Positions 1 to 41,741 are shown, counted from the whole stretch's first letter. The stretch is DNA of 45,700 nucleotides, filler included, from Jimgerdemannia flammicorona (GCA_003990765.1; 2 parts of 2 records of this genome joined end to end with filler, not necessarily neighbours in it), one strand, 5' to 3'. Made by a program: numbers and translations. The notes: a model not told the origin generated them from the sequence alone.

Positions 1-1393
1 CCTTTCTTTATTAAAACACCTATCTATCCTCTATAAAATACACTGTGCCTACTCCTTTCTGATCCCACTAGTGGGCCCCCCTCCCCCCATCCCCTCATGA
101 TGAAAGATAACTTTGTCATTCACCATCTCCACCTACTCACCACTTTGTTCACAGATCTCTTCCACCAGATGGTGATGTTGCTCACCCTGGGGACTCCAAC
201 CAACCTACCACCTAGTCAGCAAATCTCCCATCAACCCCTCCTACCTTAACAACTTCTCCTGTATACCTATTTATTACCTCTCTTTGAAAACAAAGAGCTA
301 ATATTCAGCCAGCCCTACCTATACCACTAAAACCTACTCTATAGTGAGCCAACCATTGCTCACACTACCTACTAACTGAATCTCAAATCCTTCCAGTGAT
401 CTCTCTCTCTATCTGACCTCCTCTCTACCTCCAGCTGGTCCCCTACCATTATCCAAAAGTCCCCCAGAACCTCACACTCTCCTAGCCAATGTTCTGGTAT
501 CTATACAAATCCCCCAACTTGCCCTACATTATAACACTTCTCACAATTCAATTGGCCACCATCCACCAGATGCCCAGCATGAAAATTCAACATAATATTT
601 CTCTGCAGCATCTGCCACCATACTACTCAGAACTTGGGAAGAAGCCACCTCTGCACCTCAGCACTCTGTGACCAGACTCCTGCCCAGTCTCATTCTTCAC
701 CAATCCTCACTATCTGCCAACTACTCAGCCAAAGATCCTGGCCAAGACCCCGCTGACACTCCACCCCATCACTAATATCAAACTCAGTAAGTAGTATACC
801 CCCCAGAAGCAGTCTGTCTCATTTCCACATAGCTGGGCCCCACAGCATCTCCCACTCATTACTTTGCCAGTGCAGGCTGATTCAGTGTACTCCATCCACC
901 ACCCCCCACCAGAAGCTCTTATACCATAGCAATTAGCTTCCATCCAGACTCACCAGAGAGAGCAAATCTCTCCAGGACTCTTGTGGGGAGAACCTCATCT
1001 CCTATACCTTCTATATCAGCAGCACCCAACTCTGTCTCTGCAAATCAATAGCCCATTTCAACCACCATGCTTGCAGGCAGTGCAGCCTCTTAGGAAAGTC
1101 CACTAGGTCTAGCCCTCTCTGAATCATGAGTGTTGCCAGAGTGTTCCAACTTATCTGAGACTATCTTCCTGCCCAAATCTAATCTCTAGCCAGTTTCATC
1201 AGTATCTTCACCACCCAAGCTAGAAAGTTCAAATGATATGCAACATACCACAGTTTAGAGAATCAGTAGATATTCAGGATAGATATCTGGCCTGCTAGAG
1301 AGATGTAGTGACCTCCCCAATCTCTAAGAGCCTTCTCCCAAATGGCCACCCTCCTTTCCCACCACAACTATGGCAAGACAGAATCATATACAG
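1..1393 (-). pseudogene. LINE A ORF2, C-terminal part (post-RT region and Cys-rich C-terminal domain)
   Basis: Continues from 10178 across the Gypsy insertion. Reads WQMLQRNIMLNFHAGHL..CEKC and is homologous to the distal part of LINE B. Confidence 0.8.
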
Positions 1394-1759
1394 TGTCATG
1401 TAGTGGTCGCTGAGTCCTTTAAATATGTCTGATTCTCTTCAAGGTGTATCTCTTAGACTAACTCAAGTTTGTTATAAGCAAGTTCTTATTGGAGTGCCTT
1501 TCCAAGGTCTTATAGTCCTCAAACTTCTTATCTTTTAAACTGTCTTGTTATCTCTTAGATTGCTTGCAAGGAATTGTGTGTCAGTGAACTTGACTGACTT
1601 TATTTCAGAGTAAATAAGAGGAGTATTTATACAAAATATAATTCAATGGTTGCTAAAATATAAAGTTGAATATAAATTCCAATAACTAAAATAAAATGCC
1701 AGGACAGGAAAAACTGCTAAGTTCCAGGGTTGGCACTGATGGTTGTACAGGTTCAGGAT

Positions 1760-1883
1760 GCTGGTATAATTTTAGTGTTACAGGAAAATGGTGCTGGAAT
1801 AATTCAGTGTTACATCAGAATGCTGGTGCTGGCATAACTCAGTGTTATATCAGAATACTGGTGCTGGCATAACTCAGTGTAAC
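1760..1883. repeat. About 3.5 tandem 32-35 bp repeats in G1 U3 (also ~9025-9148)
   Basis: Units TGCTGG(C/A/T)ATAA(C/T)T(C/T)AGTGT.. start at about 1760, 1792, 1827 and 1862. Confidence 0.85.
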
Positions 1884-1892
1884 CAAAGAGCT

Positions 1893-2720
1893 TTAGAGCA
1901 GAATGTTCAAGACTGTAGGGGCTTCATCCTTATCATCACTGAAGGAGATGAGATCTGTGAATTTGTCATCATCATGTCAGTCACACATTTTGTGTACTTC
2001 ACGTGTGTTATGTAAGATGACATCATTGCTGATAATGTCATCATGTTCAGCAGTGGTGGGGGCAGGAACAAGGTGATCTGGAGCTCTCCAGTCTATGAGA
2101 TTCTCTTCCACAAAATAGGGAACAAATGTGGAGTCTTGGAGAGGTCTAATCTGAATTCTTGGGCCTTGGAATACTGAGATCAATTCTTGCAGGAATTGAT
2201 CTGTGTGGTCCTGGAGAATGGGATGCCAGAAGTCTTCTACTTCATCACTATTGAGGGTGATAGTGGACTGGGCTTCTGTAGCCACTCTGGCTTCTAGTGT
2301 ATCAATATGGCAGGCTGACAGGTCTCTGAAATCTGAGACTCTAACATACTCAAAGTTGGGGATTGACCATGGTGCATGCCTGAAGATCTGATGGATCTTC
2401 TTAGCTATTCTTATTTCATGTATATCCATGGGAGTGGTATCTTGTAGCTCTTGAGTGCTGGTCTGTGGAAACTCCTGGCAGAGTAGGTTTCCTATTTGAT
2501 ACTCCTGCCATATTTGGAGGTATTTGGTAGTAATGGTGATCCTTGTTTCCATTTCAGGGCAGTAGAGGATATAATGATAAGAGTCACCAGTACCCAGGTT
2601 CACACTAGGAGTCCTTCTTGTGTGGGTCCTCATGGTCCTTCTGATGTCTTAGAATATCCTTTCTTCAAATGAGGTGCCTTGGTGGTTTCTTGACCTCAAG
2701 GTTTCATGAGCAGCAGGCAT
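1893..2720 (-). pseudogene. LTR(U3)-encoded protein of unknown function, ~275 aa, two premature stops
   Basis: ATG at 2720 is in frame with the 218-aa track ORF 1977-2633 and continues to DEAPTVLNILL* at 1893. The same protein is found in the other two G1 LTRs, and a homolog is at 39977-40903. Confidence 0.85.
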
Positions 2721-3275
2721 GTTGTTTATAGTAAGTCTTTGAGCTATTTTGGGATTGGTAGGTCTTCTTGGTTGCTGCTACTGCAGTTCCTTGATCCTTC
2801 TTTTATATTCCTCAAGATATCTATACTGTAGTCACAATGACTCACAGTTGGTCATCATTGCTCATCTTATATGCCATATGATCTTCTTGTGCTCCAATCT
2901 GGTGGCTTGTAAGGAAAGACTGTCTTCTGTGCTGATGTCATCATTCTGGGGTCACTGTTACATCATCTTTCTGAATAAGGATCTTCTTGAGCATCCTTAT
3001 TCATTGATCCAGTCCTGAAAAATTTGCTGATCTCATAACCTCTGGCAAGGGGTCAAAAAGTGATATTTATAGACTGGTGTCTTCTCTATGTATTTTGGCA
3101 TGATGGTGAAGGGTCACTCCCTTTATATAGAGCAAGGGCCTGATTCTGATCTTAATCAATCAGTTGATAGTTTGAACTCCTCTGGCTTTGAAAGTCTCAT
3201 AGATGAGTAGTTGCTAGTACCATATCTCTTAGAGAATGGTCCAAACAGATAGCCTGCTGGTCATGGAACATGCTG

Positions 3276-4400
3276 TTATGATTTGCAGACTAGAACCTCA
3301 TGGGCAGTTATCACGTTTTGCTTCTCTTATATAGGTTCATAGTACTTCTTGAGTCTGTTCCTATATACTGTGGTAGGCAGTATGGTCTCTGAGATTTTTC
3401 TAAGCCAGAAGGTAGTTTCCTTGATATCTTGCATATAGAAGGGTCCTTCCTATTTGGGCTCCAGTTTTTATGATCATGAGACTTCTACTATATTTCAATA
3501 CAGTAGGACCTTTTCTCCAATTTGGATGGGTTCTAGGGTCTTGTGATTCTTTTCTACATTTTTTTACATCAGCGATTGTGACTTTATGATGTAATTTTCA
3601 GCCTTCTTCCTGATTTGGTATAGTCTCCAGATTTCTGCATCGACCCATCTCTAAGTTAGGTCTAGATTTATAGCTGAGGTTCTATCAGAATCTTCTTCTC
3701 CAAAGAGCAGTTCTCTTAGGGTAAAGTGTGTACTCTGTGACTATATGTCTCATAGGACAGAGAGGGCAGTTGGGAGGTAGTTATCCCAATTCTCGTATAT
3801 CTCTGAGATCTTTACCAGGATGTTCATAAGGGTCTTGTTGGTTCTCTCTGTCTGTCCATTTCCTTGAGGGTGGTATGCAGTAGTCTTGATGTGTTGGATC
3901 TTGTATTTCTGATATATTATCTCATGGAATCCATTGATTAATTCTGTACTGTAGTCTGTTGTGATTTGCTTCAGTGTCTTGTAGTGGCAGATGATTTCTC
4001 GGTACAGGAAGTCAGCTATAGAGAGGGCATTGGCTTCTTGTAATGTTCCTGCTTCTATCTATTTGGTAAAGAGGTCTACAATAACTATAATATAGCAGTT
4101 TCCTGATAGTGTTACTAGTAGTGGCCCAATGATATTCATTGCAATGTAGTGGAAGGGGATAGGCTCAATTCTTGATGACCTGGGTGCCTGGTCTTACTGA
4201 TCTTGTTTCTGTTTTTGGCACTTGTCACACCCTTTGACAAATTGGTGCAGATCTTCTTCCATCTAAGACCACTATATGGTTCTTCTTGCCTTATTATATA
4301 TGTTGGTTCCTCCTAGGTATCCTTGCTCATGTATTTTCTTCATTACTTGATACTTCTTATATTTAGGTATTACTAGCTTTCCTCCTTTTCTGAGTGTAGT
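3276..4400 (-). pseudogene. G1-1 integrase
   Basis: Zinc-binding region (IHEQGYLG...CDKCQK), core motifs IIGPL and TTAYHPQGNGQTERTNKTL, GPF motif, terminal NRLKKY. Many stops. Confidence 0.92.
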
Positions 4401-4515
4401 GTTGTCTAGTTCAAACTGTTTCCAAGTCCTGTTGATGATGGTGATTGTCCAGGGTTCAAGGTAGTTGGACATCATCCACTTCCCAAGATAGCTAATTAAT
4501 CTATAGTATAACTCC

Positions 4516-5790
4516 TTATTCATGTTGAGTAATCTTGATGGGAGTGTTTTGAGGTGTCCTTGAGAGTGCATCAGCATTGGTGTTGGTTCTTCCTGAGCAG
4601 TACTTGATAGTACAGTCATACTCTTGCAGCCTGTAGATCCATCTGACATATATTCCTTTGGGGTTCAGAGTATAGAATAGCCAGGCAAGAGTGGAATAGT
4701 CTGTTTGTATAGTGAAGTATTTTCCAGCTAGGTAGTAGTGGAACTTGTCTACTGCCCAAACTACTGCTAAGCATTTGAGCTTGTATAACTTGTAGTTCTG
4801 TTCTGCTCTGTGGGTACCTCGGCTTGCATAGGAGATGACATATTCATGTCCACCTTTCTTCTGAGCTAGGACTGCTCCAAGTCCTATTGTACTTGCATCT
4901 GTCTGCAGGATGAATTCTAGATTCCAATCTGGTCTTCTGAGGATAGGTGCTTGGGTCAACCTGATCTTGAGTTTATTGAAGGTTTCTTGGCATTCCTTGG
5001 TCCATTCAAATTTGATTTCCTTCTTCAGTAGCTCATAGATAGGTGCTGCAATATTGGAGTATCCTTTGATAAATCTTCTGTAGTAGCTGGCCAGTCTAAG
5101 GAAGGTATGGACTTCTGTGGTCATTCTGGGTCTTGGGTAGGCTGCAACAGCCTCAATCTTCATGGGGTCTGTATGGATTTCAGTCTGGTTGATGAGGTAT
5201 CCTAGATAGGCAATTTTTTGAGCTGCAAACTTGCATTTCTTGGGCTTGATGTAAAGGCCATGCTCCTTGAGCTTCTTGAGGGCTAGCTGTATATGATTGA
5301 TATATTTACATGCAGTGTTGCTGAAGATGATCACATTATCAATATAGATAAAGAGCCATTTTCCAATCTCATTGCTGAAGACTCTGTTCATCATTCACTA
5401 AAAACTTGCTGGGGTATTATACATTCCAAATGGCATTCACAGGTAGATATAGGTGGCATCAGGTGTGATGAAGGCTGATTTCTCACTGGTATCTTGAGTG
5501 AGACCAATCTGATAGAAGCCTGAGAACAGATTCAAGGTGGTGTAGTATTTGGCTTCACTTTCAAGGGTGGTGAAGATTTCTTGAATATTTGATAAGGACT
5601 GCCTATCCTTCCTGGTGATGGCATTGAGCTTCCTGTAGTCAATGCAGAGTCTTGGTGCAAACTCTCCAGACTTGCTTCCTTTCTTTGGGGTGAGGACAAT
5701 GGGTGAAGCCCAGGAACTGATAGCTTGCTTGATGATTCCATTTCCTTGAGTTCTGCTCACAGCTATTCTCTATAGGTAGGTGGCATGGGT
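4516..5790 (-). pseudogene. G1-1 reverse transcriptase and RNase H
   Basis: SSWASPIVL, RLCIDYRKLNAIT, FIYIDNVIIFS (decayed YxDD), KCKF, FILQTDASTIGLGAVL, ADALSR in track ORFs 5437-5760 and 4516-5394. Confidence 0.97.
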
Positions 5791-6027
5791 CTGGCTTTCT
5801 GGTAGATAGACTTGGTATCACCAGTATCAACTTCATGGTAGTACTTGGGTTCTTGATTGTGGATATCCCTGAAGTCTATAGCAAGTACTCCTTTGTTCTG
5901 GTACAGGATCTTGAGAAGTTGTTCTTCCAGGGGAAAGTTTTCTCCAATAGTATTTGTGTACTTGTTCTGGTCCTTGTCTTTCTTGTGTTCAAGTTCAGTA
6001 ATCTTAGTAGTGGCATAGGCTCCTCTT

Positions 6028-6440
6028 CCAGTGGATCCAAAGCCTTGTTCTTCTCTCTTGGTCTTGATGAGTTTGATGGCTTCAGTGATCTTGGGTTTCT
6101 TGATTTCATGGATCAGCACCTGGCCAATCCTGTCATGCTTCTTGACTTTGAATGGGGTGGTGGGGTTGTGATTCCTGACTATGAGGAAGATCTCACCAGT
6201 GTAATCAGAGTCAATTACTCCTCCTTCAACTGAGATTTTGCTTTTGGCCAGACTGCTACTGATCTTGATAATTCTGGTATAGTTCTCTGACAGCTTGACT
6301 CCAATTCCAGTGCCAAGTAGGGTGATGGTCTGTGGTTCAAGGATAGCATCTTGAATACTGGAAAGGTCCATTCCTATGGCTCCTTCAGTCTTGTATTCTG
6401 GGATCTTGGCTTTGGGGTAGAGCTTCTTGACTTTGAGAGT
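6028..6440 (-). pseudogene. dut: dUTPase domain within G1-1 pol, between protease and RT
   Basis: All five trimeric dUTPase motifs in order: AIGMDL, SSSLA, GVIDSDYTGEI, DRIGQ, R.EQGFGSTG. Confidence 0.95.
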
Positions 6441-6789
6441 GATATCTGGTTCTTATTCCTCCTCATCATCACTGTCAGCTTGAAGCTCTGGGGGCTGGTC
6501 ATCTTCTTTGGCTTTCCTTTTTGCTTTAGTGGCTTCTTGCTCATGTTTCTGTTGATGGATTTTCCTGACTTCACTGATACAGGACCAGCAGTCTTTCAGG
6601 TATTCAGAGCAGTACATCCTAGTACCATGGGGGCATCTTCCTTGAGGGATATAGCTATTGATAATCTTGTTATACCACTGCTCATCTGTGAGCTTGGGTA
6701 TCTTGTTCTTGTTCTTATTCACTGAGTGCATGAAGACTACAGTGTCCTCTTCATCTCTTTTCTCCATGTCTGATAGGACTCCTTTGTGG

Positions 6790-7135
6790 ACATTGATAGA
6801 GACTTGTATCTTTCTTCCTCTATAGTTGATCTGTATCTTCTGAGCATTGAGGTCAATGATGGTCTTGGCCTTGTGAAGCCATTGGTTGCTAATGAGAATG
6901 TCATATTTGGTGGCACTTATAACAATCACATTCACTGAGATGGTAGCTCCTCTTATCTTGATGGGGACTTCTTGAATTTTCCCAAGGAGGGTAGCTCATG
7001 TACTACATATCTGCTGTAACATAGACTATCTTGGTGGACTCTTCAATGTCCTAGCCTAGGCAGTCAATTGCCTTCTTGCTCATGAGGCATCCTCAAGCAC
7101 CAGTATCATTGATGGCATCAAAGATACAGTCTTCC
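6790..7135 (-). pseudogene. G1-1 aspartic protease
   Basis: DAINDTGA catalytic motif and YDILISNQWL..KTIIDL (decayed ILG.DWL motif). Confidence 0.88.
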
Positions 7136-7699
7136 ATCTGACATAGGGTATAGGCTGATGTCTTGCACTGGTCTTCAGATTCTTCACCTGAGTTTTTGGA
7201 TTCTTCCTGTGTATTGTGAGCTTCTATAATCTTATACTCTTGATTCTTGGCAGTAGTTGCAAGTCCTACTCTCAACTGCTGTCTGAAGGCAGGGACTTCA
7301 GCTAGCTGTCCAAAAGTAGCATTGACCTTCTGTTTCTTGAGGTCCTTGTAGATATCATACTAGTGGATCTTGGTCTTGTGCAGCTTCTGTTCCTTCTTGC
7401 TTTTGCTTTCTCCAAAGACTGGAGTAGTGCCTTCAATGATTTGGCAGGCAGCTTCATCTAACTCCATGTCTTGATCAATCTCCTCAGGTTGAGTCTTGTT
7501 TTGAATAGTGACAGCTGGGGTCTTCTTTGGTCTTCAAACTGGCTTGCTGTTGCTCTTCTTGCCATAGGGCTTGGACTGGGTTCTGGTATCTTCAGTAGCA
7601 GGGTAGAATTCAAGCTTCTCATAATATTCTTCATCATCAGTATCACCAATCTCCTCGATGACTACTGTATTGGTTTGTTCTCCAGTTCTGCTAGCATTG

Positions 7700-8639
7700 C
7701 TTGGTTGGACTTTACATCTTATTTCAGTTATACAATTCTTTGCATAGTGGCCTTCTTCTCCATATCTGAAGCATGTGATATTGCATTCTTCTGTAGCAAC
7801 TGCAAATCTCTACACTAGTCTCCTGTTGGCACTTCAGACTTCTCTAACAATATCACCAAGGTGTGCAGTCATCTTAGTAAACTGCTTGATGAGTTCCTCC
7901 ACTGGGTCAGCTTTAGGTGCCTTGGGGGTAAGTGGGGTTGGTTGTCTGTTTACAACTGTAGCAGGTATGATACTAGTTGGCTTTGATGGCTCCATCTTGA
8001 TGCCAGTTATTTTCTCTATTGAGTGTTCGGCAGGATGTCTGGCAGTCCAATATCTCTATGCAAAGACCACTTTCTGATCAAGGATCAGTACTGCTGGGGT
8101 AGACCAGATTTCTAGAGAAATTTCAAGGTGAACTCCTTTGAGAAAGGTTGAATCCACTATTTGTTCTTTGAGGGCATCATCATAGCCAGCCAAGACAATC
8201 TGGTGGCAGATTCAGGTATAGAATGAGTTGGGATCTTCACTAAGTCCCTGGTAGATAGTGTTGAGTTGATCCTTGAGAGCTTGCTTGATCTCTTCAATAT
8301 AGTATGTTATTCTGAGGAAGGCTTTCATGTTGGCAAATTTGGCTGCACCATTATTAGCAATAGTGACTGTATTGAACTTGTCTCTGGCAGGTCCTCTGAG
8401 GCTGACTGGTAGAAGGGCCAATTGTGCATCTACACCAAGGGCTCATATGGCAGCAAATTGTTCAAATTCTTAATAAAGGTCAGGATTGACTCTTCAGTAG
8501 TATATTCATAGAATATGGGGAGGTGCATTTCTATCTCATCTTGAATTCTTGCAGGGGTGACTCTTGTAGTCAGAGTAGTTATTGTGGTAGTTATGTATTT
8601 ATTTTTCAGCTTAAAAGTGAGGGATTCATCTTGAATCAC
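7700..8639 (-). pseudogene. G1-1 gag (capsid and CCHC knuckle), frameshifted
   Basis: SLRGPARDKFN and L..I.QG.SE...FY resemble the gag at 42636. Knuckle TCFRYGEEGHYAKNC at ~7735-7780. Confidence 0.8.
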
Positions 8640-8655
8640 CAGCCAATGGGCACCA
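8639..8655 (-). promoter_or_regulatory. G1-1 primer binding site (tRNA unassigned)
   Basis: TGGTGCCCATTGGCTGG begins 3 nt after the terminal CA of the 5' LTR; TGG is complementary to tRNA CCA. Confidence 0.7.
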
Positions 8656-8658
8656 AGT

Positions 8659-10173
8659 TGTCACATAGTGGTTGCTGAGTCCTTCAAATATATCTGATTC
8701 TCTTCAAGGTGTATCTCTTAGACTAACTCAAGTTTGTTATAAGTAAGTTCTTATTGGAGTGCCTTCCCAAGGTCTTATAGTCCTCAAACTTTTTATCTTT
8801 TAAACTGTCTTGTAATCTCTTTGATTGTTCATAAGGAATTATATATAAGTAAACTTAACTGACTTAATTTTAGAGAAAATAAGAGGAGTATTTATACAAA
8901 ATATAATTCAATGGTTGCTAAGATATAAAGCTAAATATAAATTCCAATAACTAAAATAAAATGCCAGGACAGGAAAAACTGCTAAGTTCCAGGGTTGACA
9001 CTAATGGTTGTACAGGTTCAGGATGCTGGTATAATTTCAGTAGTATAGGAAAATGGTGCTGGAATAATTCAGTATTACATTAGAATGCTGGTACTGGTAT
9101 AACTCAGTGTTACATCAGAATGCCAGTACTGGCATAACTCAGTGTAACCAAAGAACTTTAGAGCAGAATGTTCAAGACCATAGGGGCTTCATCCTCATTA
9201 TCACTGAAGGAGATGAGATCTGTGAATTCATCATTATCGCTGATGACATCATCATATTTGGCAGGGGCGAGGGTGAGAACAAGGAGATCTAGAGCTCTCC
9301 AGTCTATAAGGTTCTCTTCCACAAAATAGGAAACAAATGTGGGGTCTTGGGGAGGTCTAACCTAGATCCTTGGGCCTTGGAATACTGAGATCAATCCTTG
9401 CAGAAATTGATCTGGATTGTCCTGGAGAATGGGATACCAGAAGTCTTCTACTTCATCACTATTGAGGGTAATAGTAGACTGGGCTTCTGTAGCCACCCTG
9501 GCTTCTAGTGCATCAATATGGCAGGCTGACAGGTCTCTGAAATCTGAGACTCTAATATACTCCAAGTTGGGGATTGACCATGGTGCATGTCTGAAGATCT
9601 GTTGGATCTTCTTAGCTGTTCTTATTTCGCATATATCCATGGGAGTGGCATCTTGTAGCTCTTGAGTGCTGGCCTGTAGGAACTTGTAGCAGAGGAGGTT
9701 TCCTATTTCATACTCCTGCAACATTTGAAGGTATTCAGTAGTAATGGTGATCCTTATTTCCATTTAATGGTAGTAAAGGATATAATGATAAGAGTCACCA
9801 GTACCCAGGTTGACACTAGGAGTCCTTCTTGTGTGAGTCCTCATGGCCCTTCTGATGTCTTGGAATATTCTTTCTTTGACTGAGGTACCTTGATAGTTCC
9901 TTGACCTCGAGGTTTAGTGAGCAGCAGATATTTTATTTATGGTAAGTTTTTGAGCTAATTTGGGAGTGGTGGGTCTTGTTGGTTGCTACTACTATGGTTC
10001 CTTGATCCTTCTTTTATATTCCTCAAGATACCCATATTGTGGTCACAATGACTCACAGTTGGTCATCATTGCTCAGCTCATATGCCATATAATCTTCGTG
10101 TGCTCTGATCTGATGGCTTGTAAGGAAAGGCTGTCTTCTATGCTGATGTCATCATTCTGGGGTCACCATTACA
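8659..10173 (-). repeat. G1-1 5' LTR (1515 bp)
   Basis: Direct repeat of 1394-2962, differing mostly by transitions plus one 54-bp deletion. Confidence 0.97.
9158..9931 (-). pseudogene. LTR-encoded protein, copy in G1-1 5' LTR (start decayed to ATA, several stops)
   Basis: Track ORF 9362-9763 is near-identical to 1977-2633 and ends at the same VLNILL* stop. Confidence 0.8.
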
Positions 10174-10177
10174 ACAG

Positions 10178-12488
10178 AAAGAAAGATGTCCAAATAGCTC
10201 ACCACCTCTCTTGTAGAGACAATTGTTCCAATGATGTCCCCTCCCATGAGCCCATTCTCCAGCACTATCATCTCACACTTATACCAGTTAAGGTTTGCTC
10301 CAGGATGTGCCTCATACCATTCAACCATCTCCTTAAGTACCTCAACATCCTCTACTGAGCCAAGTCCAATCACCCTATCATCTGCAAAGACCCCCACCTT
10401 CTACACTATACAATATATAGAGAGCCCCACCACCTTCTGTTATATCCTATCCATTAAAGGTTCTAGCAAAAGAGCATAAAGAATAGAAGACAGTGGATCT
10501 CTCTGAGGAACTCCTCTTCCCAAGGGGAACACCAAACCCCAGTGACTATTACACATTAGTACTGTCCTACTGCCCTCCAATAGATTCAATAGAGAAGCTC
10601 AAAATCATAGGGGAATACTAATTCTATCCAGCACCTTACCCAGCCACACCTATCAGACATGGTCATAGGCCTTCTTCTGGTCCAAAAAGACCAGTCTTCC
10701 ATCTAATCCACAAGCTCATACTCCTTCAATAATGCCATGAACTCAGGCTGTCCCATCTCTGATAAGTCTGCCACCATTAAAGCCCTACTACTCCTCACCC
10801 AGCACCTGTTGGGCAACCTTCTGTAGTCTTGCAACAATCACCTCGGTCACTATCTTCCTGTCCATATCCAGAAGCATAATTGGTCTCCAGTTCTTCCAGT
10901 CCTCCCTCCTCTCCTTGTCTTTGTACAACAAGGCCACCAACTCCAAATCCTGCTCTCTAACCCACTCACTATTCAGAAGAACATAGTCACAGAGAGCTGT
11001 CATCTCTTCTAAAACTCAAGGAACCTTCATCATTCTTTTCCAAAAGTCCCAAGGTAACCCATCCTCTCCTGGTGCCATTTCAAGCTTAGTGGCTGCAAGG
11101 ACTCTTTGGATCTCCTCCTCTTGGACTGGAAGGATTAAGTCACCAAGGCTCTCTACTTGTGGTGGTTTCCAATCCTCTAGTATTTCTCCAATTGCCTCCT
11201 CATCCTCACCCCCTTCCTTCTCACTCCACAGACCCCTCTATCTCTCCTTCAGTACTCTCAAGATCTGTTGTATACTATGTACTATTTTCCCCTCTGTATC
11301 CAGGACACTATCCCATTGATGCTATACCCTCCTGGCCTGGTGGAGCCACGATAAATATCTAGTAGGCCTCTCCTCCTCCTCCAGTCTCTACTACCTCAGC
11401 CTGGCTGCTATTCCTTTTATATGTATCTCCTCCTCCTCTCTCAGCACCTGTTGCAGCTCCGTTATCTCTAATTTTGCAAGCTCTAACCTCTAATTATCTA
11501 CCTCACCAGAATTTAACAAATCTGCCCACTCTATCTATAGTCTAACCAACCAATTGGAAGCACACCTCACCATTTTCTTTCTCTGCTTCCCTGCCTCTCT
11601 ACCAGCCCCTCTTCAGTAAACCCAGGCAGTTTCTTTCAACCTCATCCATCAGAAACCTACTGGCAAACCCTCATATATCCAGCCAGCAATATTTACTTGG
11701 ATGTCCTCCATCCATGGGTTTCACAAAACCTTCTCAGCCAGCAGGGAGGAGTTAAGATGCCAATGTCCAGGTCCATTTCCACTCCCCCCAAACTGCCCCC
11801 TCCCCAACAGGCCCCAGTGATCAGACTATTGGCACCACTCCACCTCTAGTATCCTCCAGACATCCACACCCCAGCATTTGGCTGTCAGAATCCAATCAAT
11901 TCTTGTCCTAAGGCCATTCATCCAGTGTGTGTAGATCCTCTTTTCACCCCACCCTGTATGGCCCATATCTCTCAAGGAGCTAAGGTTCTCTACCTCCTCT
12001 CAAGCATCCAGCCCACCACTTCTCTCACCTGCACTCCTCCTTCCATCCAACTCCAGATTCTGTACCATATTAAAGTCACCTCCCAGTATATCAACACTAT
12101 TCTCCAAGAGCACACCCTTCTCCAAAAGCCCCTTAATTTATGTGATCCTCTTACCCCTTGCTGCAGAGCAGTAGTAAGAGCCAACTTTCACTAGCTCTCA
12201 CCTGGATTGATTCCATTCTCCCCATACCAAATAGTCACCCCAGCTCCCAATTCTCCCTAAGTCACCTTCACCTCTCTACACCAAAATCACCACCTTGCTC
12301 ATCCAAACTGTAGCCCCTCCCCATTCTCTAGTCTATTCCACACAGTTATCATCATCTTCACAACATATATCCTATAGCAGAAAGAGATCTGCCTCCAATC
12401 CTTTAAGCCAAGTGAAAATGTTCTTGTGCTACCCAGATTCCCATAACCCATTCATATTCAGAGAGAGAATATTAGTTGTACTGTTCAT
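10178..12488 (-). pseudogene. LINE A ORF2, endonuclease and RT, copy 1
   Basis: ATG at 12488: MNSTTNILSLNMNGL...DLFLL*D, GGDFN, NWRPIMLL, FADD. Confidence 0.9.
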
Positions 12489-12578
12489 AGGGAATAATGT
12501 TTTAGAAATAAGGTCTCACTCATTCTCTATAAAACCACATCCCGTCTCTCCTGTACCAAGTCCAAATTATGTTCCACT

Positions 12579-15026
12579 TCTCTTTCCCACTACAACAATG
12601 GCAAGACAGAACCATATATATAGAAAGAAAGATGCCCAAATAGCTCACCACCTCTTCTGTAGGAACAATTGTTCCAATGATGTTACCTTTCATGAGCCTA
12701 TTCCCCAGCACCATCATCTCACACTTATGTCAATTGAGTTTTGCTCCAGGATATACCTCATACCATTCAATAAGTACATATCTCAACATCCTTCACCAAG
12801 CCAAGTCCAATTACTATATCATCTGCAAAGACCCCCACCTTCAATACTACACTATATACAGAGAGCCCCACCACCTTCTGTCATATTCTATCCATCAAAG
12901 GTTCTAGCAAAAGAGTATAAAGAATAAGAGACAGTGGATCTCCCTGAGGAACTCCTCTTCCCAAGGAGAACACCAAACCCCAATAACCATTATACATTAG
13001 TACTGTTCTACTGCCCTTCAACAGATTCAACATAGAAGCTCAAAATCATAGGGGAACACCAATTCTATCTATCATCTTACCCAGCCACACCTGCCAGACA
13101 TGGTCATAGGCCTTCTCATGGTCTAAAAAGACCAGTCTTCCATAATTCACAAGCCCATGCTCCTTCAATAATGCCATAAACTCAGGCTGTCCCATCTCTG
13201 ATAAGTCTGCCACCAACAAAGCCCTACTGCTCCTCACCCAGCACCTGTTGGGCAACCTTCTGTAGTTTTGCAACAATCACCTTGATCACTATCTTCCTGT
13301 TTATATCCAGAAGCATAATTGGTCTCCAGTTCTTCCAGTCCTCCCTCCTCTCCTTGTCTTTATACAATAAGGCTACCAACCCCAAATCCTGCTCTCCAAC
13401 CCACTCACCATTCAGAAGAACATGGTCACAGAGGACTGCCATATCTCCTAAAACTCAAGGAACCTTTGCCATCCTTTTCCAAAAGTCCCAAGGTAACCCA
13501 TCCTCTCCTTGTGCTATTCCAAGCTTAGTTGCTGCAAGGACTCTTTGGATCTCCTCCTCTTGGACTAGAAGGATTAAGTCACCAAGGCCCTCTACTTGTG
13601 GTTGTTCCCAATTCTCTAGCATTTCTCCAATTATCTCCTCATTCTCACCCTCTTCCTTCTCACTCTACAGACCCCTCCACCTCTCCTTCAGTACTCCCAA
13701 GATCTGTTGTGTACTATGTACCATTTTCCCCTCTGCATCCAGGACTCCATCCCATCAATACCATACCCTCCTGGCCTAGAGGAGCCATGATAAATACCTA
13801 GTAGGCCTCTCCCCCTCCTCCAGTCTCTGCTACCTCAGCCTGGCTGCTATTCCTTTTATATGTATCTCCTCCTCCTCTCTCAGCACCTGTTGCAGCTCCA
13901 TTACCTCCAATTTTGCAAGCTCCAACCTCTAATCAACTACCTCACCAGAATTTAAAAAATCTGCCCACTTCCTCTGTAGTCTAACCAACCAATTGGAAGC
14001 ACACCCCACTCTTTTCCTTCTCTGCTTCCCTGCCTCTCTACCAGCCTCTCTCCAGTAAACCCAGGCAGTCTCTTTCAACCTCATCCATCAGACACCCACT
14101 GGCAAACCCTCATGTGTCCAGCCAGCAATCTTTGCTTGGATGTCCTCCATTCATAGGTTCTACAAAACCTTCTCAGCCAGCAGGGAAGAGTTAAGGTACT
14201 AATGTCCAGATCCATCTCCACTCTCCCCAAACTGCCCCCTCCCCAACAGGCCCCAGTGATCAGACCATGGGCACCACTCCACCTCTAGTATCCTCCAGAC
14301 ATCCTCACCCCAGCATTTGGCTGTCAGAATCCAATCAATCCTTGTCCTAAGACCATTCACCTAGTGTGTATAGATTCTGTTTTCACCCCACCCTGTATGG
14401 CCTATATCTCCCAAGGAGCTAAGGTTCTCTACCTCCTCCCAAGTATCCAGCCCACCACTTCTCCCACCTGCACTCCTCTCTCCATCAGTTCAATCCAACT
14501 CCAGATTCTGCACCATATTAAAGTTACCTCCCAGTATATCAACACCATTCTCTAAGAGCACACCCTCCTCCAAAAGTTCCTTAATCTATGTGATTCTCTC
14601 ACCCATTGCTGCAGAGCAGTAGCAAGAGCAAACTTTCACTAGCTCTCACCTGGGTCGATTCCATTCTCCCCATACCAAATAGTCACCCCAGCTCCCAATT
14701 CTCCCTAAGTCACCTTCACCTCTCTACACCAAAATCACTACCTTGCCCATCCAAACTGTAGCCCCTCCCCATTCTCTAGTCCATTCCACACAGTCATCAT
14801 CATCTTCACAACATATATCCTGTAGCAGAAAGAGATCTGCCTCCAATCCTTTAAGCCAAGTGAAAATGTTCTTGTGCTGCCCAGATCCCCATAACCCATT
14901 CACATTTAGAGCGAGAATATTAGTTATACTGTTTATAGGAAATAATGTTTTAGAAATAAGGTCCTACTCATCCTCTACAAAACCACATCCCACCTCTCCT
15001 GTGCCAAGTCTAAATTATGTTCCACT
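12579..15026 (-). repeat. Tandem duplicate (2.45 kb) of the LINE A endonuclease-RT region
   Basis: Collinear with 1351-1393 joined to 10178-12578. The junction at ~12574-12578 carries CCAC microhomology. Confidence 0.92.
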
Positions 15027-16989: not shown

Positions 16990-17725
16990 TATCTTTTCTC
17001 TGAGTTGTGTTGAAAACTATTGCTTGAAGTTAGTGTAATGTGAATTGTACAGGAGAAAGATGCAATGAGTATTATATTCAATAATTTCTGATATACACTA
17101 TTTATATAATATAGATATTTTTGGTAATTTCCTAATTAGTATAATAAGACAGATTTAGTAGATTTATAGATTCTATATAATATGATAGACTTAGTAAATT
17201 TATATATAATAAATTATTACTTTCTTTTCTTCTTAAATAGTATAGTTTCAATAGACTTGAATAGTACAAATTTAGTGAACTTCTCAAAGAGCAGATAATA
17301 TAAACTTCTTGAATAATAGATAATATAGGCTTCTTTAGGTAATATAAATTTCTTTAAATAGTAGATGATGTAGATTTATTAAGTAGTATATAATAAATAA
17401 TTATGTTCTTCTCTTCTTGAATTATGTAGAATTGTCTAGAGAGTAGATTCTTAAGTTTCTCTGACTTCATCTAAAGTAGACCAAATTGGCAGACTATTCT
17501 TCTTCTTTAATAAAAAGTAGACTAAAGTAGAAAGAAAATAAGTTCATAACTTCTGATAGTAGCTCTTAGTAGATATTTCTCCTAAGTATTATAATTCTCC
17601 ATAGATCAAGTAGCTCTTAGCAGATATTTCTCCTAAGTGTACTAAACTAGATTATTGCTTTCTTTTACTTTCAGACTGAGGTTATAGTACAGAGGGTATT
17701 TATATATATTTGAGACTATAGTTAA
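16990..17725 (-). repeat. Highly decayed LTR fragment (R/U5-like)
   Basis: 17660-17705 on the minus strand reads TATAAATACC..TAACCTCAGTC..AAAGTAAAAG, resembling the G2/G3 LTR core. Short ~30-bp direct repeat at ~17558 and ~17609. Confidence 0.45.
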
Positions 17726-19252
17726 TGTAATGGTGACCTCAGAATGATGATATCAGCACAAGAGACAGCCTTTCCTGGCAAGCCACCAGATTAGATTATA
17801 AGAAGATCATATGATATAACTTATCCAGGCTAATGATGACTAACTATGAGTTATTAGAACTATAATATAAATATCTTGAGGAATATAAAAGAAGGATTAA
17901 AGAACCATAGTAGCAGCAACTCAACAAGACCCACTAATCCCAAAATAGCTCAAAGACTTAATATAAACAAAATGTCTACTGCTTGCCAAACCTCAAGATC
18001 AAGAAATCATCAAGGGCCCTCAGTCCAGGAAAGGATGTTTCAAGACATCCAAAGAGCTATAAAGACCCACACTATAAGGACTCCTAGTGTCAACCTGGAT
18101 ACTGGTGACCCTTATCATTATATCCTCTACCACTGTGAGATAGAAACAAGAATCACCATTGCTATTGAAAACCTCCAGATGTGGCAAGAATATGAAATAG
18201 AAAACCTCCTCTGTTGGGAATTTCCTCAAGCCAGCCCTCAAGAGCTAAAAGATGCCACTTCCATAGATATATATGAAATAAGAATAACCAAGAAGATTCA
18301 TCAGATCTTCAGGCATACACTATAGATAATCTCCAACTTGAAGTATACCAGAGTCTCAGACTTCAGAGATCTATCAGCCCATCATATCAATACACTAGAA
18401 GCCATAGTAGCTACAGAGATCCAGTCCACTATCACTCTCAATAGTAATTGGATAGAAGAGTTCTGGTATCTCATCCTTCAGAACAACCCAGATCAGTTCC
18501 TGCAAGGATTAATCTCAGTATTTCAAGGTCCCAGTATCCAGATTAGATCTATTCAAGACTCTACATTTGTTCCTTATTTTGTAGAAGAGAATATCATAGA
18601 TTGGAGAGCTCCTGCTGCTAAATGTGATGACATCATCAGTGATGACATCATCCTGCATGATATATGCAAAACATGTGACCTATGCAACGAGATGGACAAA
18701 ATATTTGCAGATCTCATCTTCTTCAGTGATGATGAGAATGAAGCCCCCATGGTCCTGAATATTTTGCTTTAAAGTTCTTGATGATACTGAATTCTGCCAG
18801 TATCCTTTTCCTATATAACAGTTAATCCTTCCACTGGTATTCTGATCTTGTATGATATTGAATTCTTTCAGCATTCTGAACTTGTACAACTATCTGTACC
18901 AATACTGGAATCTGTACTGACAACTTTAGTTTTCTATGTTCCAGTATTTTATTCAGTTATTGGAATTTATATATAGCTTTATATCTTAGCAACTATTGAA
19001 TTATATTTTATATAAATACTCCTCTTATTTTCTTTGAAATAAAGTTAGTTTCTTTCAGTACAATATATACAATTCCTTACAAGCAATCTAAAGAGATAAC
19101 AAGATAGTTTAAATATAAGAAGTTTGAGAACTATAAGACCTTGGGAAGATACTCCAATAAGAACTTGCTTATAACAAACTTAAGATAGTCTAAGAGATAC
19201 ACCTTGAAGAGAATCTGATGTATTTGAAGGACTCAGCGATCACTATGTGACA
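17726..19252 (+). repeat. G1-2 5' LTR (1527 bp)
   Basis: TGTAAT...TGACA termini, TATAAATA at 19011-19018, AATAAA at 19038-19043, followed by a decayed PBS. Confidence 0.95.
17972..18772 (+). pseudogene. LTR-encoded protein, G1-2 copy, 266 codons with one internal stop (TGG>TAG at 18323)
   Basis: Track ORFs 17876-18325 and 18338-18772 are in the same frame and match 1893-2720. Confidence 0.85.
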
Positions 19253-22932: not shown

Positions 22933-25900
22933 GAGAGATACTGGAGTAAAATCTTGCATAGTGTAGAGGTACCATAGAAACTCTGGGATGAGATAATAGC
23001 AGTATTGTTGGAATCAGGTTTATGATGCCATAGAGGCAGCACTTCTGGCAATTGTAACTGATAGGGCTGATTATATATAGGGCCCAAGAAAAGGGCTAGC
23101 AAAGTGGTAGGTGGTATATAAGGAGTACTGTACAGAGTTGATAGCTGTGGACAGTTTGGATTATCAGGAGATCTTGGAGGCTTTGAAGGCCCAACAGAGA
23201 GAGACAGATGAATTGAAGGCTGAGAGGAATTTGGATATTGCTGGGGATGTAGTGAGTATAGAACTATAGAGTAATGGCTGTACTTTAAACAATATTATTC
23301 AAAATGAACAGTACAATCAAAATCTTATCTCTGAATGTCAATGGGCTTTGAGGGGTAGTGAGGCAGTGAAATATCTTTAGATGGCTGAAGGAGACAGAAG
23401 CTGATTTGTTCTTACTACAGGATGTTGGGTGTGATTGAGATCTGGATAGTAAGAACTGAACAAAGACAATGGGGGGTATAGCTGTTTGCCAAGAATGTGG
23501 GGGCATTCTGATTAGGAAGGACAGAGGGGACTTGGGAAAAATTGGACATTGGGGGAGCAGGGTAGTGTGAGGAGTTTGAAAGAGGCCAGGCTGGAGGCCA
23601 TTGATAATTAGATCATATTATTACCCAGCAGAGAGAGAGGAGAGAGTGGAATGAATCTTAGAGCTATGAGAGTCTGGAGCATTGGTGGAGGCAGAGATTG
23701 ATTGTCTAGGGGAGAACTTTAAAATAATATATGATGGAAAGATAGACAGAACTGAGAGTAGGAAGATGATAGGTAAGTGGGGGTATAGAAGCCTGGGAGG
23801 AAGTCGAACATATGAGCTCTTTAGTGGATGCTGGGAGGCTTGGGTGGGGGGATCATAGGGTCTTTATCCACTGGGTGGCAGGGCTAGGCTCAAAGATTAA
23901 CTGAATACTGACTGCAGACTACTGGGGAGCTGATACATATCTGGAGGTCATTGGAGACTATTTGGTATCTATGGTAGGATCACTGGGGTCCTTTAGATGG
24001 GGGGTATTTTGAGAGAGATAGGGAGGGGCCTGGACATTGGCAACTGAATACTTCTTTGCTAGGAGAGGCATCTCTATAGAAGGTATGGGTGATAGTTATT
24101 AGCTTTAGGATTCTTGATTAGAGAGTGATGGGACTGGGAATTGGGAATTGCTGAGTATGATTGAAATCTGAGACACAATAGTACTAGGGGGAGGCAGGGA
24201 GGATATGGAGTACTCAGAGGAGGAAGTAAATGAGGTGGGTCTCCCAGAGGTTGGAAATATTGTTGGCTCTTAGGTGGTTCTGATAAATGAAGGAAAGAAG
24301 GGGGATTGGTATATATAGTGGGCCAGGCTAGAGGTGGAGGAGCTGAAGGGCATTCTATGGCAGGAGGAGGATATACAGATCAAGAGCATGGTGGCCAGAC
24401 TGCTGTTGTAGGGATTGGAGGAGGGGGAATGGCCTACCAAGTTTTTGTCAGAGCTGTTATAGGTGAGGAGAGTTTGGTAGTAGTGGGAGGGAATATTGAA
24501 TGAGACCAGGGAGTTGGTGGTTGAGATACTAGAGATTCTGGACCAGTTGAGCAAATAGTGGAGATATTTATAGAGTAAGAAGGATAGAGGGGAGGGGGGG
24601 TTGGACATTGACAGATACTTGGAGAAATGGCACTCTGATCTGATAGCAGGCTTAGACAATCTTGGGGCTACTGCCCAGGGGGAGGAGATTCAGTAGATCC
24701 TGCTAATAATAAGCTCTGAGACTATACCAGGAGAGGATGGCTTACAGTGGGACTTCTGCAAAAGGATAGCAGGAGTTAGGTTGGCCCTGGAGAAAATGAC
24801 AGCAATGTGTAATAAAGTGATAGACTCTGGAATATAAATTGGAGGGCAGAGCTTGGATCTTCTGGCTCTGCTGTTTATGAATAAGGGGAGGAGGAAGGAG
24901 TGGAAGAACTGGAGGCTGATCATACTTCTGGATTTGAATCACAAACTGATTACAAAATACTAGTAACTAGGCTGCAGAGGGTGGCCCAACAGGTTCTGAG
25001 AGCCAAGTAGTGAGAGTTTGTTGGGGGACATCTGATCAGAGATGGGATAGCCTGAGTACAAGTATATAGTATCATTGAGAGTACTTGCTCTGCTGGAGTA
25101 GATGGACAACTATATTTTCTGAACCAAAAGAAGGCCTATAACAGGGTTTGATGAGTGTGGTTAGAGAGGGTGCTAAAGTATATTAGAGTTCCCCATAGGG
25201 TCAGATGGGCCTTGGTCAGTCTGCTGGAAGGGAGTTGGGCAGCAATTATAGTAAATGGGCACAGAGGGGTTGTATTCTCTCTAGGCAGGAGAGTGCTACA
25301 AGGGGATCCACTGTTACCAATTCTGTATACATATACTGTCCCTGGAGCCACTTTTGGATATAATATGGTGAAAGATGGGAGGGTTGAATATTCTAAGAGT
25401 TAATTTGGAAGGTGAGGGCCTTCACTAATGATATGGTGATCAGGCTGGGGTCAGTTACTGATGTTGTGAAATATAGAGGAGTATGAGGGGTGTTCAGGTG
25501 CCAAGCTCAACTGGTATAAGTGTGAAACTTTGGTACTGGGGAGAGAGATAGTAGGTGTGGATGTGATTGGAACAATTGTCTCAGTGGGAGAGACTATTTA
25601 CCATCTGGAGATTTACTTTTCAATATATAGCTCCTTACTGCCATGTAAGTAGTGAGAGTAGAGATTGGCTGAGTAGGGTAACACTCTCTAGTAGTAGAGT
25701 GGTCACTATATTTCTCTTGCAAAAAGGGTCACAGTATTGAATATCTACTGACTACCTAAGCTATAGTATCTTGGGTACCACTTGGACTTTCCAGTATAGG
25801 TGGTCAAGTGACCACTGAAGATGGTCAGAACCTGGATATAGGTAGAGTGATGGAGTTACATTGGTTGGGAGATATTAACCTAGCTGGTGGACTGGGGAGG

Positions 25901-26970
25901 CCTGGGTCTGGTGGATTTTCCCAAGTATCTTTATTGCTTGAGAGTATGGTGGCTAAGGCAAGTGAGTGAGTTGAGGTGCAGAGAGTGGGTTCTCCTCATA
26001 CAGAGGTTGTGAGAAGCCCAATTCTCCCCTGGGGGTATGACTGGGGAACTTCTTTCTCTAGTAGCTTTGGAGGAGAGTCAGAGGATATAGTATAGGAGAT
26101 TCTGGTGGGGGGTGGCTGATGGGACATATCATATTTGTCTCTGATAGCAGTGTGATGAGATAGAGGAGAAATGGGGACCTTGGATATAGAGGTGAGACAG
26201 CCTTCTATTGGGCAGGATGTTAGTGGATAATTTCTGCTTAGAGGATAGTATGGAGTATCTCCAGGAATAGTATTTGGCAGTGGAGTAAGCAGATGGTAAA
26301 TTAGATTCCCCTCAAGTTCTGGGTGATATAAAGGCAAGTTTTATAGTATAATGTTATGTTGAACTACTAGATGGGCCACTTGGTAGAAGGGAGTACCTAG
26401 GAGTATCAGAATGTCAGGCAGGAGGGAGAGGTGATACAGATCTCTAAATTAGTATGAGATGATGGAGGACTTTTGAAGAGAGATTGAGATATAGCTAGAG
26501 GTGTACTCACCAGGATTAGCAGCTAGAGAGAGGTAGAGTGATCTTCAGAGGAGGCTGGTTCGGGGGTTTGGAGATAAGTGGCTGATATTAGAATGAGTGC
26601 TAGTAATTTGGATCAGAATAACAAGATATTGGCTTTTTGTTTTTGAGGAAGGTCAATAGTTGATATTGGAGATATAAATAGCTAGATAGGAGTTGCTGAC
26701 AATGGATATGTTAAATGGGTGGTGGAGGGGTGGGAGTGCTAGTGGGGGAGTATTGAAGGCAATTGGGGAAGATAATTTATTGGAAGAGTGAGAGAAGAAA
26801 TGGAGTGGTAGGGGGGTTGGCAGTGTTTCAGAGAAATAGTGAGAGAGAGAGAGATTCTCCAAGAAGGATTGGGTGAGGAGCATGTTTATATTAGTAGTAT
26901 ATCATAGATAGTTTGGTAATAAAGTAGAAGTCCATGTAACTATATATAAAAATAAAGATAAAAAAAAAAA
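22933..26970 (+). mobile_element. L1/Tx1-like LINE B (end of ORF1, ORF2, poly(A) tail), decayed
   Basis: ORF2 ATG at 23304: MNSTIKILSLNVNGL..DLFLLQD; KEWKNWRLIILLD, VLQGDPLLP. AATAAA at ~26951 and A-tail at 26960-26970. Confidence 0.92.
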
Positions 26971-39771: not shown

Positions 39772-41741
39772 TGTGACATATGTAATTGACAATAGAGTAT
39801 AGTGACTGCTAAGATCAGACAACATAATGGCATGACAATTGAATAGACAGCCTGACCCATTAGGTGATCACCCCAAAAGGAGCAATGATAATCCAAGCCA
39901 AAAGGAAGACTACATTATGTAAAGAACCATACTCCATCTCAGGAATCAGCACTAAAGAACAAGTACTCACCACACAATGCCTCCTATCTGCCACCCCAAC
40001 CAGACCTCCCGCCGCTCTTCCCCCTTGCCTGGCCCAAAGACTCTAATCCTTGAAGCTATCAAGAAGGCTATTTGGCGCCCAGACACCTCTGAACATCTGA
40101 ACTTCTACACTGAGGATCTTGGACACTTCATCAATTACCAGTACATAATGACCCAACAGCTCAAAGATACCACTGAACAAATGACCCTCTGGCATGATTA
40201 CGAAATTGGACACTGCCTTCATAATGAAACCCAAGAAGGTGACCAGGAAGACCTCATTGCCAAAATGTTAACCACCAGCCAGCTAATCAAGAGAGCCCTC
40301 CATGTCCACCAAATCTTCTGCCATATTCCCTGGGCTATAGCACACTTACAAGGAGTAACTGCTGGAAGTCTTGCCCGTCTCTCAACTGAAGATGCAGACT
40401 GGATAGAATCAGAAGTAGCCAACTCTATTGGTAGTAACTGGGTCGCTGTAGGAAGCCAACAAACCAAGCCCACTCAACCAGGCTTTCACACTACTCTACT
40501 CTGAGACAACCATCAAGGACACCTAATGAGTCTTATGGAAATCTTTGAAGGACCACCTATTACCATTACAACACCTGTTGGAGCAACCCCAACTACTCAC
40601 CACCCTGTCAGCTACAATTTACACCTCATCATTTGGGAACCAAATCAAGAAGTCCCAGGAGTCCCTACCAATACAGAAACTGAAGGACCTGAGGAAGAAG
40701 AAGAGGAGGAACAAAGAATCTACCAATTCTCTGTCCGCCTTCAAGCAGTCCAAGGGTTGGAGGATGTCATCGAGGATGATTGGCCACAATTCTACCCCCT
40801 CACCTCCTGGCCGGCGCTCCCACCCTTTGAAGAACGGGATGAAGAAGTCACAACCCAGCAAGATGATTGGATCACTGATAAAGGGTACTTTGCCATTCAG
40901 TGATCCCACATCTGTTTCCTCAGTCCGGTCAGCCAACGTTTGTCAGCAAGTCAGCAACACCCATTTTCAGTGATACCACCCACAACATCCATATCCAGCA
41001 CTAGTACTCATCTTATCCCAATTTGGTGCAAACAATTGTCACACCCATTTTCAGTAATTAAACCACCACAACATAGTATACCTTAGCCCCCCCCATAGCT
41101 AGCAAATTTGTATAAATAACCCTATATTTTAGAGTGAATAAACCTCAGTCAGTTTGTGTTTAAAAGTAAAAAGAATTACAGAGAAACCTCACTGCCTCCA
41201 AGAGACCAGATAAATTCTGAGAACAAGATAACTAGAGCAATGATCGCTTAAGGTTTGAGTTAAAGAATTTTCTCTTGCCACAGAAAATGTTCAAGATTCA
41301 CTGCTAAAGGAAAGCCGCACAAAAAACTGCTGACCCAACTGTCATGCATTCAGAACCAACCACCATTTGAGGTTCAAGACTGTGCATTCAAGACCACTGC
41401 CATTCAGACTGCCATTTAGACCTCCATTTGAGATTCAAGGCCCAGAAACCCAGCCAAGGAACCCAAGGGTACTAGAACAAGACCACCAGTAAACGAATGA
41501 CCACCAGAACCCGCCCTCAAGTTAAGAACGAATGTTCGACTGAACTGTTGACCCGAACGATTCCGTACTGTGCCATGAACCATGTACATTCAAGAACCTC
41601 CACCATATGAATCGGACGAACCGATCACATGACCATCGACCTGCAACCATCGCAAATGCACTCAGTCATATACCACGCGCTCCACCAAGTGGCACATTGA
41701 GCTGTGCTTGAAACAACTAGGGATACAAACTGCATGCCACA
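39772..41741 (+). repeat. G2 5' LTR (~1970 bp; partner LTR not in the window)
   Basis: Imperfect terminal inverted repeat, TATAAATA at 41111-41118, AATAAA at 41137-41142, PBS 3 nt after the terminal CA. Confidence 0.8.
39977..40903 (+). pseudogene. LTR(U3)-encoded protein of G2, 308 codons with one internal TGA at 40502
   Basis: Track ORFs 39977-40504 and 40526-40903 share a frame. Motifs W..YEIG..L, HQIF.H.PW.I, LS....D..E..VA and FxGP.I.I match the G1 LTR ORF. Confidence 0.85.

Follow-up and report, generated by a model that had tools for sequence, protein, structure and literature searches.

A putative accessory gene family inside the LTRs of Ty3/Gypsy elements, present as decayed copies in Jimgerdemannia flammicorona

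Analysis of 45,700 nucleotides of Jimgerdemannia flammicorona DNA (GCA_003990765.1; two parts of two records joined end to end with filler, together referred to as the window) points to an undescribed family of accessory genes carried in the LTRs of Gypsy-type retrotransposons, of which the window holds decayed members only. Four decayed copies of the ORF are present, three in elements of one type (G1) and one in a second element (G2). The ORF is probably an element-encoded accessory gene of a dUTPase-bearing Ty3/Gypsy clade, situated in the LTR upstream of a TATA/poly(A) core (U3 by position). Retrotransposon LTRs are treated as non-coding control regions and are masked by annotation pipelines by default, and to our knowledge coding within U3 is known only from complex retroviruses, in which U3 holds sag of MMTV and is overlapped by nef and bel2. 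The family would mean that env-less Gypsy elements can carry accessory functions inside the LTR, where such pipelines mask them and, if the gene modulates transcription or silencing, would offer a new handle on the negotiation over expression between a TE family and its host.

The G1 Gypsy-type element is represented in the window by one complete copy (G1a) and one truncated copy (G1b), with the following features:

1394..2962, minus strand: G1a 3' LTR, 1569 nt, with TG..CA ends (self-BLAST and sequence)
2963..8658, minus strand: G1a internal region, with gag (CCHC), PR, dUTPase, RT, RNase H and IN
8659..10173, minus strand: G1a 5' LTR, 1515 nt, with TG..CA ends (self-BLAST)
2972-2963, minus strand: G1a PPT, a purine run abutting the TG of the 3' LTR
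8655-8643, minus strand: G1a PBS-like site (TGG...), 3 nt past the 5' LTR end
1390..1393, with its partner at 10177-10174, minus strand: G1a target-site duplication, CTGT, 4 bp
17725..19252, plus strand: G1b 5' LTR (self-BLAST)

Pfam matches on the minus strand of G1a follow the order RVP_2, dUTPase, RVT_1, RT_RNaseH and Integrase_H2C2, with IN after RT, and the gag frame contains a CCHC knuckle. For the RT/RNase H ORF, the ESM Atlas gave a mixture of eukaryote phyla that pointed to no one host. Together with the LTR ends, the target-site duplication, the PPT and the PBS-like site, this domain order identifies G1a as a bona fide, complete Ty3/Gypsy (Metaviridae) insertion; tRNA genes were sought within the window for the PBS and none was found. 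The insertion is old, since its two LTRs are only 89-92% identical, and stops and frame changes are numerous in its internal region. The internal sequence of G1b reaches approximately position 22811 and is followed by an assembly gap, seen as a run of N near 22860 (X in translation) that terminates the element. Four public runs were compared with the element as contigs only, which covered all 30 bins, and in contigs from three of the four, representing other copies of the family, position 8658 was joined to 1394 (the LTR-end/PBS junction). Small shares (0.05-0.19) were recorded for seven public sequencing runs, mostly soil metagenomes and none of them listed as RNA. Differences between the G1a copy and the contigs of the four runs were mostly transitions; for run X1, window 1394-8658 gave 257 A>G, 180 T>C, 156 G>A and 128 C>T, and each transversion type was seen 5-18 times. 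The decay by cytosine deamination that had been proposed for these copies fits the transition-dominated differences of window 1394-8658 from the contigs of all four runs.

The frame was recovered from each of the three G1 LTRs at the predicted lengths of 828, 774 and 801 nt:

1893..2720, minus strand: LTR ORF copy 1 (G1a 3' LTR), 828 nt, 276 codons including the stop, LTR positions 243-1070
9158..9931, minus strand: LTR ORF copy 2 (G1a 5' LTR), 774 nt, 258 codons including the stop
17972..18772, plus strand: LTR ORF copy 3 (G1b 5' LTR), 801 nt, 267 codons including the stop

The original prediction of a sense-strand ORF in all three G1 LTRs is right as to the presence of the frame (3/3) and wrong as to its being open, as copies 1, 2 and 3 contain two, three and one in-frame stops, respectively. 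Those of copy 1 lie at 2651-2649 and 1979-1977, leaving a longest open stretch of 223 codons (1977-2648); those of copy 2, in which the ATG is replaced by ATA and 54 nt are deleted relative to copy 1, lie at 9916-9914, 9766-9764 and 9364-9362; the single stop of copy 3 lies at 18323-18325. No frameshifts were found in the three copies, and the last six residues and the stop, the VLNILL* ending already noted in the prediction, are identical in 3/3. When the three LTRs are aligned, each of the three indels within the frame (54, 24 and 3 nt) is a multiple of 3, as had been claimed for the net length differences, whereas beyond the frame this holds for only 2 of 11 indels over 741 nt; the Fisher value for this contrast, computed by hand, is 0.027. 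At the nucleotide level the ORF is no better conserved within G1 than the rest of the LTR, with G1a versus G1b identities of 0.79-0.80 for the ORF and 0.81-0.83 for the remaining LTR. No copy of the ORF was found between the PBS and gag of G1a, where it is present in both LTRs instead, and no similarity of the LTR ORF to gag or to other internal parts of the elements was found. This presence in both G1a LTRs is what was expected of a gene that is doubled at every insertion because of its position inside the LTR, a position in which it would also survive as solo LTRs and share the poly(A) signal of the element. The copies in the window are decayed pseudogene copies in dead elements and, because all four are broken, none shows present-day function in this genome.

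The fourth copy belongs to a second Gypsy element and is a distant homologue of the other three:

39977..40903, plus strand: G2 LTR ORF homologue, 309 codons including the stop, at the 5' end of G2
41111..41142, plus strand: G2 core block, TATAAATA at 41111-41118 and AATAAA at 41137-41142, 208 nt past the stop of the G2 ORF

A single in-frame stop interrupts the G2 ORF, at 40502-40504, and a gag zinc knuckle followed by PR lies downstream of it. The G1 and G2 ORFs share approximately 28% identity over 198 aa, which is comparable to the identities of gag (24-27%) and PR (25-31%) between the two elements, and the ORF has thus kept pace in its divergence with the core genes of the element.

Relatives were obtained from several searches. 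When 5.8 billion protein clusters were searched by word index, seven relatives at 56-77% identity emerged, and searching 1.84 billion representatives exhaustively with HMMER yielded seven proteins, of which five were accepted, at identities down to 31-45%; the other two (P0010 and P0011) were dropped as repetitive proteins matching by composition. A profile search added one further subfamily. The frame is intact in the database relatives, which are 247-342 aa long (for example P0002, 271 aa; P0009, 342 aa; P0013, 325 aa), and the eight clusters that were looked up correspond to 23 member sequences, all from JGI/IMG or ENA and all either nameless or named 'hypothetical protein'. A single host or a small number of related hosts may account for these metagenome relatives. 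Among viral contigs, the search returned no relative. DNA was available for two relatives, L001 (an intact frame of 323 codons) and L002 (an intact frame of 291 codons); a third candidate from the metagenome scan, L003, was judged to be a spurious match of 15 residues and was left unused. The stop of the L002 ORF is directly followed by a purine run and TGTAAT that resemble a PPT and an LTR start (L002:1249-1275), and because of this the ORF may be internal in the L002 lineage, rather than in the LTR. A 33-nt motif occurs at both ends of the L002 contig (170-202 and 1481-1513) at 82% identity.

Substitution tests were carried out on six DNA copies, for the deepest pairs of which dS is saturated. 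Plain NG86 (Nei-Gojobori) dN/dS was dropped, as it was low in every pair, including 0.38 between the two LTRs of G1a, a pair that serves as a control because the divergence between its members arose only after insertion. Transitions account for 51 of the 64 differences within this pair, which biases NG86 downwards, and the low value between LTRs of the same element led to its replacement by frame-shift controls and by a comparison of 0-fold with 4-fold degenerate sites using Kimura distances (K0/K4):

G1 versus L001: K0/K4 of 0.27-0.31, p <= 1.4e-5
L001 versus L002: K0/K4 of 0.36, p = 2e-4
G1a versus G1b: K0/K4 of 0.42-0.52, p = 0.005-0.03
the two LTRs of G1a: K0/K4 of 0.62, p = 0.25
G2 versus L002: K0/K4 of 0.81, p = 0.46, saturated, with the contrast not significant

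For copy 1 against L001, pN/pS was 0.33 in the reading frame, compared with 1.03 and 1.5 when the two alternative sense frames were used, and the remaining inter-lineage pairs behaved similarly in this frame-shift control. The rates show purifying selection on the LTR ORF between lineages, and the divergence of the two G1a LTRs is consistent with neutral decay (K0/K4 of 0.62, p = 0.25), a pattern as would be expected of a gene that is selected in the replicating lineage and decays in each inserted copy. The differences within the G1a pair (1893-2720 versus 9158-9931) number 20, 11 and 29 at codon positions 1, 2 and 3, respectively; this mild third-position excess is not predicted by strict neutral decay and could reflect gene conversion from other copies or site-specific, uneven mutability. 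Between lineages, alignment of the LTR at the DNA level is possible mainly over the ORF, and beyond it over a leader of ~30-55 nt and a block of 45-86 nt at TATA2/AATAAA (described below), and an M-P start with 15-20 nt ahead of the ATG is common to all four lineages. Among these six copies, the significant inter-lineage K0/K4 ratios are 0.27-0.36 (p <= 2e-4) and the G1 frames are free of frameshifts. The claim of a protein-coding gene in the LTR, made in the original prediction, survives as a gene-like frame upstream of the core block and fails as regards intact copies in the window.

These data bear directly on the possibility that the ORF is a piece of a host gene caught by one LTR lineage without any role for the element, or a frame left open by chance or by constraint on the DNA itself (enhancers). 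It would fit such an origin that no domain or fold match suggests a function and that all copies in the window are dead. However, no relative outside the LTR ORF family was found among the 5.8 billion clusters or the 1.84 billion representatives, and no longer or fused form of the protein was found either, which by the search's own note is weak evidence. The ORF is moreover present in two lineages whose gag and PR are equally diverged, and its intact occurrence in separate samples (291-342 codons) makes it more than a chance frame. Constraint at the DNA level is disfavoured because it would not produce a frame-specific pattern acting on 0-fold sites, as is seen here. Taking these points together, we regard a captured host fragment or a fortuitous frame as very improbable, and an accessory gene of the element remains the preferred reading.

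The signals that surround the ORF in the G1a 3' LTR are as follows:

2801..2807, minus strand: TATA1 (TATAAAA), 87 nt upstream of the ATG
1789..1880, no strand assigned: tandem repeat with a 35-nt unit, 2.6 copies, between the stop of the ORF and TATA2
1599..1631, minus strand: core block of TATA2 (TATAAATA, 1631-1624) and AATAAA (1604-1599), conserved in L001 and G2

The order in this LTR is therefore LTR start (2962), TATAAAA, ATG (2720), stop (1895-1893), repeat, TATAAATA, AATAAA and LTR end (1394), which confirms the predicted position of the ORF upstream of the TATA/AATAAA pair. The G1 ATG lies 243 nt into the LTR and the stop 262 nt ahead of TATA2 (LTR position 1332). TATA1 is also present in the G1a 5' LTR, in G1b, in L001 (65 nt before the ATG) and in L002 (80 nt), and G2 has only a degenerate form of it (TATGTAAA). 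The spacing of TATA2 and AATAAA is 26-27 nt, and the pair recurs in L001 and G2 within the conserved block. The limits of U3, R and U5 were set from motifs: a start ~30 nt past TATA2 would fall on AATAAA, on which grounds AATAAA is taken to be used only at the 3' end of the genomic RNA and the ORF is placed, by position, in U3.

How the ORF is expressed can be approached from this layout. It is close to an even call, among all readings together, that each LTR is a self-contained transcription unit, with a promoter of its own as judged from the motifs. From TATA1, 65-87 nt ahead of the ATG, transcription would yield a monocistronic mRNA of ~1.2 kb that runs through the ORF and ends at the AATAAA of the same LTR, so that the 5' LTR, the 3' LTR and solo LTRs would all be able to express the ORF; genomic RNA would start at TATA2, with AATAAA acting only at its 3' end. 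The conservation of TATA1 in three lineages is the reason for preferring a promoter in each LTR to expression from the 3' copy only. The latter, the route favoured in the original prediction, would employ a subgenomic mRNA in the style of complex retroviruses, in which a leader donor is spliced to an acceptor placed before the ATG. It speaks for this route that genomic RNA, if driven by TATA2, would have the ORF-bearing part of the LTR at its 3' end alone, and that in both G1a LTRs a pyrimidine-rich stretch ending in AG lies inside the LTR ahead of the ATG. However, the contigs of the four runs, which are not on record as RNA, showed neither splice-like joints across the element nor any starts or ends; L001, whose contig begins at TATA1, has no evident candidate acceptor; and splicing would leave a conserved TATA just before the ATG without a role. 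We consider this route unlikely. Still less probable is an arrangement in which TATA1 is the main promoter and the ORF, far from being a U3 gene, lies within a very long R as the first cistron of the genomic RNA, similar to the upstream ORF0/ORF1 of some plant Gypsy elements. The conservation of TATA1 in three lineages would suit this arrangement, as would the fact that the ORF comes before gag both in G2 and, within the 5' LTR, in G1, but it needs an R of ~1.2 kb and a 5' LTR AATAAA that is ignored 1.2 kb from the cap. A further point against it is that no non-coding part other than the TATA2-AATAAA block is conserved among G1, L001 and G2, which fits a working core promoter at that block.

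Returning to the reading in which each LTR has its own promoter, a further step, which we put forward as rather doubtful, would be that each LTR is an autonomous cassette (TATA, an ORF of 270-340 codons and a poly(A) signal) and that solo LTRs, the remnants of recombination, continue to supply a factor in trans that either activates sister elements or suppresses host silencing. If LTRs were such cassettes, solo LTRs would amount to persistent helper genes for the family, an arrangement that we know of in no LTR retrotransposon.

The predicted protein was examined at the level of sequence, composition and modelled fold. Pfam gave no family for P0002 at E <= 1 and only three stray sub-threshold matches among the 18 members scanned, and a PDB sequence search with the family profile gave no matches at E <= 10; a match to an already described accessory domain, which would have removed the novelty of the family, was thus found neither in Pfam nor among PDB sequences. 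In six intact members the maximum 19-residue hydropathy is <= 1.07, the pI is 4.5-4.9 and the net charge is +1 to +8 over the first 45 residues and -16 to -26 over the last third. There is no hydrophobic segment in any of the six, in agreement with the earlier statement that the protein lacks a signal peptide or transmembrane segment and is not env-like. The AF2 model of the whole protein has a mean pLDDT of 50.7, and its best match in a wide VIA-align search (Z of 4.7) corresponds to generic helices. A model of the core domain reached a pLDDT of 64.2 and a pTM of 0.50, and with this low-confidence model Foldseek gave no match at E <= 0.001 against PDB and BFVD. The nearest clusters in the ESM Atlas score <= 0.83, and the Atlas model has a pLDDT of 0.35. 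The models, at low confidence, are mostly helical with a small C-terminal sheet. Composition and models together suggest a protein that is soluble, acidic and mostly helical, its N-terminus rich in arginine and its strongly acidic C-terminal tail studded with conserved hydrophobic residues. Such a protein could be a nuclear regulator acting in trans, either activating LTR transcription or countering host silencing. A basic head, a helical core and an acidic tail would fit this role, the charge layout being the one feature that speaks for it, and regulation of the element's own expression in the nucleus is offered tentatively as the leading candidate function.

By geometry, the closest analogue is MMTV sag, a superantigen ORF of ~300 codons in the U3 of a betaretrovirus LTR (>1.3 kb), upstream of the core TATA and present in both LTRs. 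In each case a gene fills much of a long LTR before the core TATA and is duplicated with it, the G1 frame lying wholly within the LTR (243-1070) and upstream of a core promoter placed by its motifs (TATA2 at 1332). Sag, however, is encoded by a vertebrate retrovirus and is a membrane glycoprotein of type II, whereas the G1 protein belongs to a Ty3/Gypsy element without env, has no hydrophobic segment or Pfam match and is not a membrane glycoprotein related to Sag. Lentiviral nef and foamy-virus bel2/bet are 3' accessory ORFs that start upstream of the PPT and overlap U3, and are alike in that accessory coding sequence extends into U3. They differ in that they only overlap the LTR, whereas the G1 ORF starts 243 nt within it and stops 262 nt before TATA2; a start upstream of the PPT is not found in G1, the M-P start is shared by all lineages, and L002 may differ in this respect. 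HTLV Tax and foamy Tas are element-encoded soluble transactivators that act on U3 repeats, and any likeness to them would be one of function only: the 35-nt repeat before TATA2 in G1a, the basic N-terminus and the acidic tail are compatible with such a protein, to which no similarity was found in sequence or, with the low-confidence models, in fold.

Extra ORFs are also described in other Gypsy elements. The accessible part of one report places ORF0 of rice Retrosat2/RIRE3/RIRE8 and of plant Tat/Ogre likes upstream of ORF1/gag-pol and not in the LTR (PMC3485330). According to the same part of that source, ORF0 resembles the LTR ORF in being an extra ORF with unknown function in a long-LTR Gypsy element, lineage-restricted, faster evolving than pol and without outside relatives (PMC3485330). 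It differs in having no sequence relation to the LTR ORF family, beyond which the searches found nothing, and an internal position between the 5' LTR and gag is not what is seen in G1a. The bdelloid rotifer elements Juno, Vesta and TelKA are described, in the portion of the text available, as Gypsy-like, with a dUTPase between PR and RT and with diverse captured ORFs (PMC5408684). As far as that portion extends, their extra genes are ORF3s past pol (env-like, GDSL esterase, DEDDy exonuclease), whereas the G1 ORF is in the LTR and is without such a domain (PMC5408684). In the available part of a survey of LTR structure in the Metaviridae (PMC3601003), 'ORF' and 'open reading frame' have 0 occurrences, and the accessible sections of the crapaud paper (PMC10787394) and of a Blumeria preprint contain nothing bearing on the LTR ORF. 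Searches of open-access full text by exact phrase returned no report of an LTR-embedded ORF in Ty3/Gypsy elements; Repbase notes may hold a prior description.

Several observations concern the surroundings of the elements in the window. G1a sits inside a minus-strand non-LTR (LINE-like) retrotransposon (window 10176-15026 and 1-1390), in which Pfam detects Exo_endo_phos and RVT_1 within 10176-12620 and the RT frame of which is cut exactly at the G1a LTR. A LINE-like stretch of 2.4 kb is directly repeated at 91% identity (10176-12578 versus 12622-15026). C strongly exceeds G across the LINE-like region, with a skew of -0.35 to -0.52, and window 1-1000 shows this excess as well; window 23001-27000 has a strong GC skew in the opposite direction, +0.36 to +0.54, and may be a similar repeat in the other orientation; the one ORF tested there (24270-24689) is without a Pfam match. 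Finally, an ORF on the minus strand at 31874-32281, in an AT-rich part of the window (26-30% GC), is likewise without a Pfam match and has an end that looks similar to the start of a copia-type RT.
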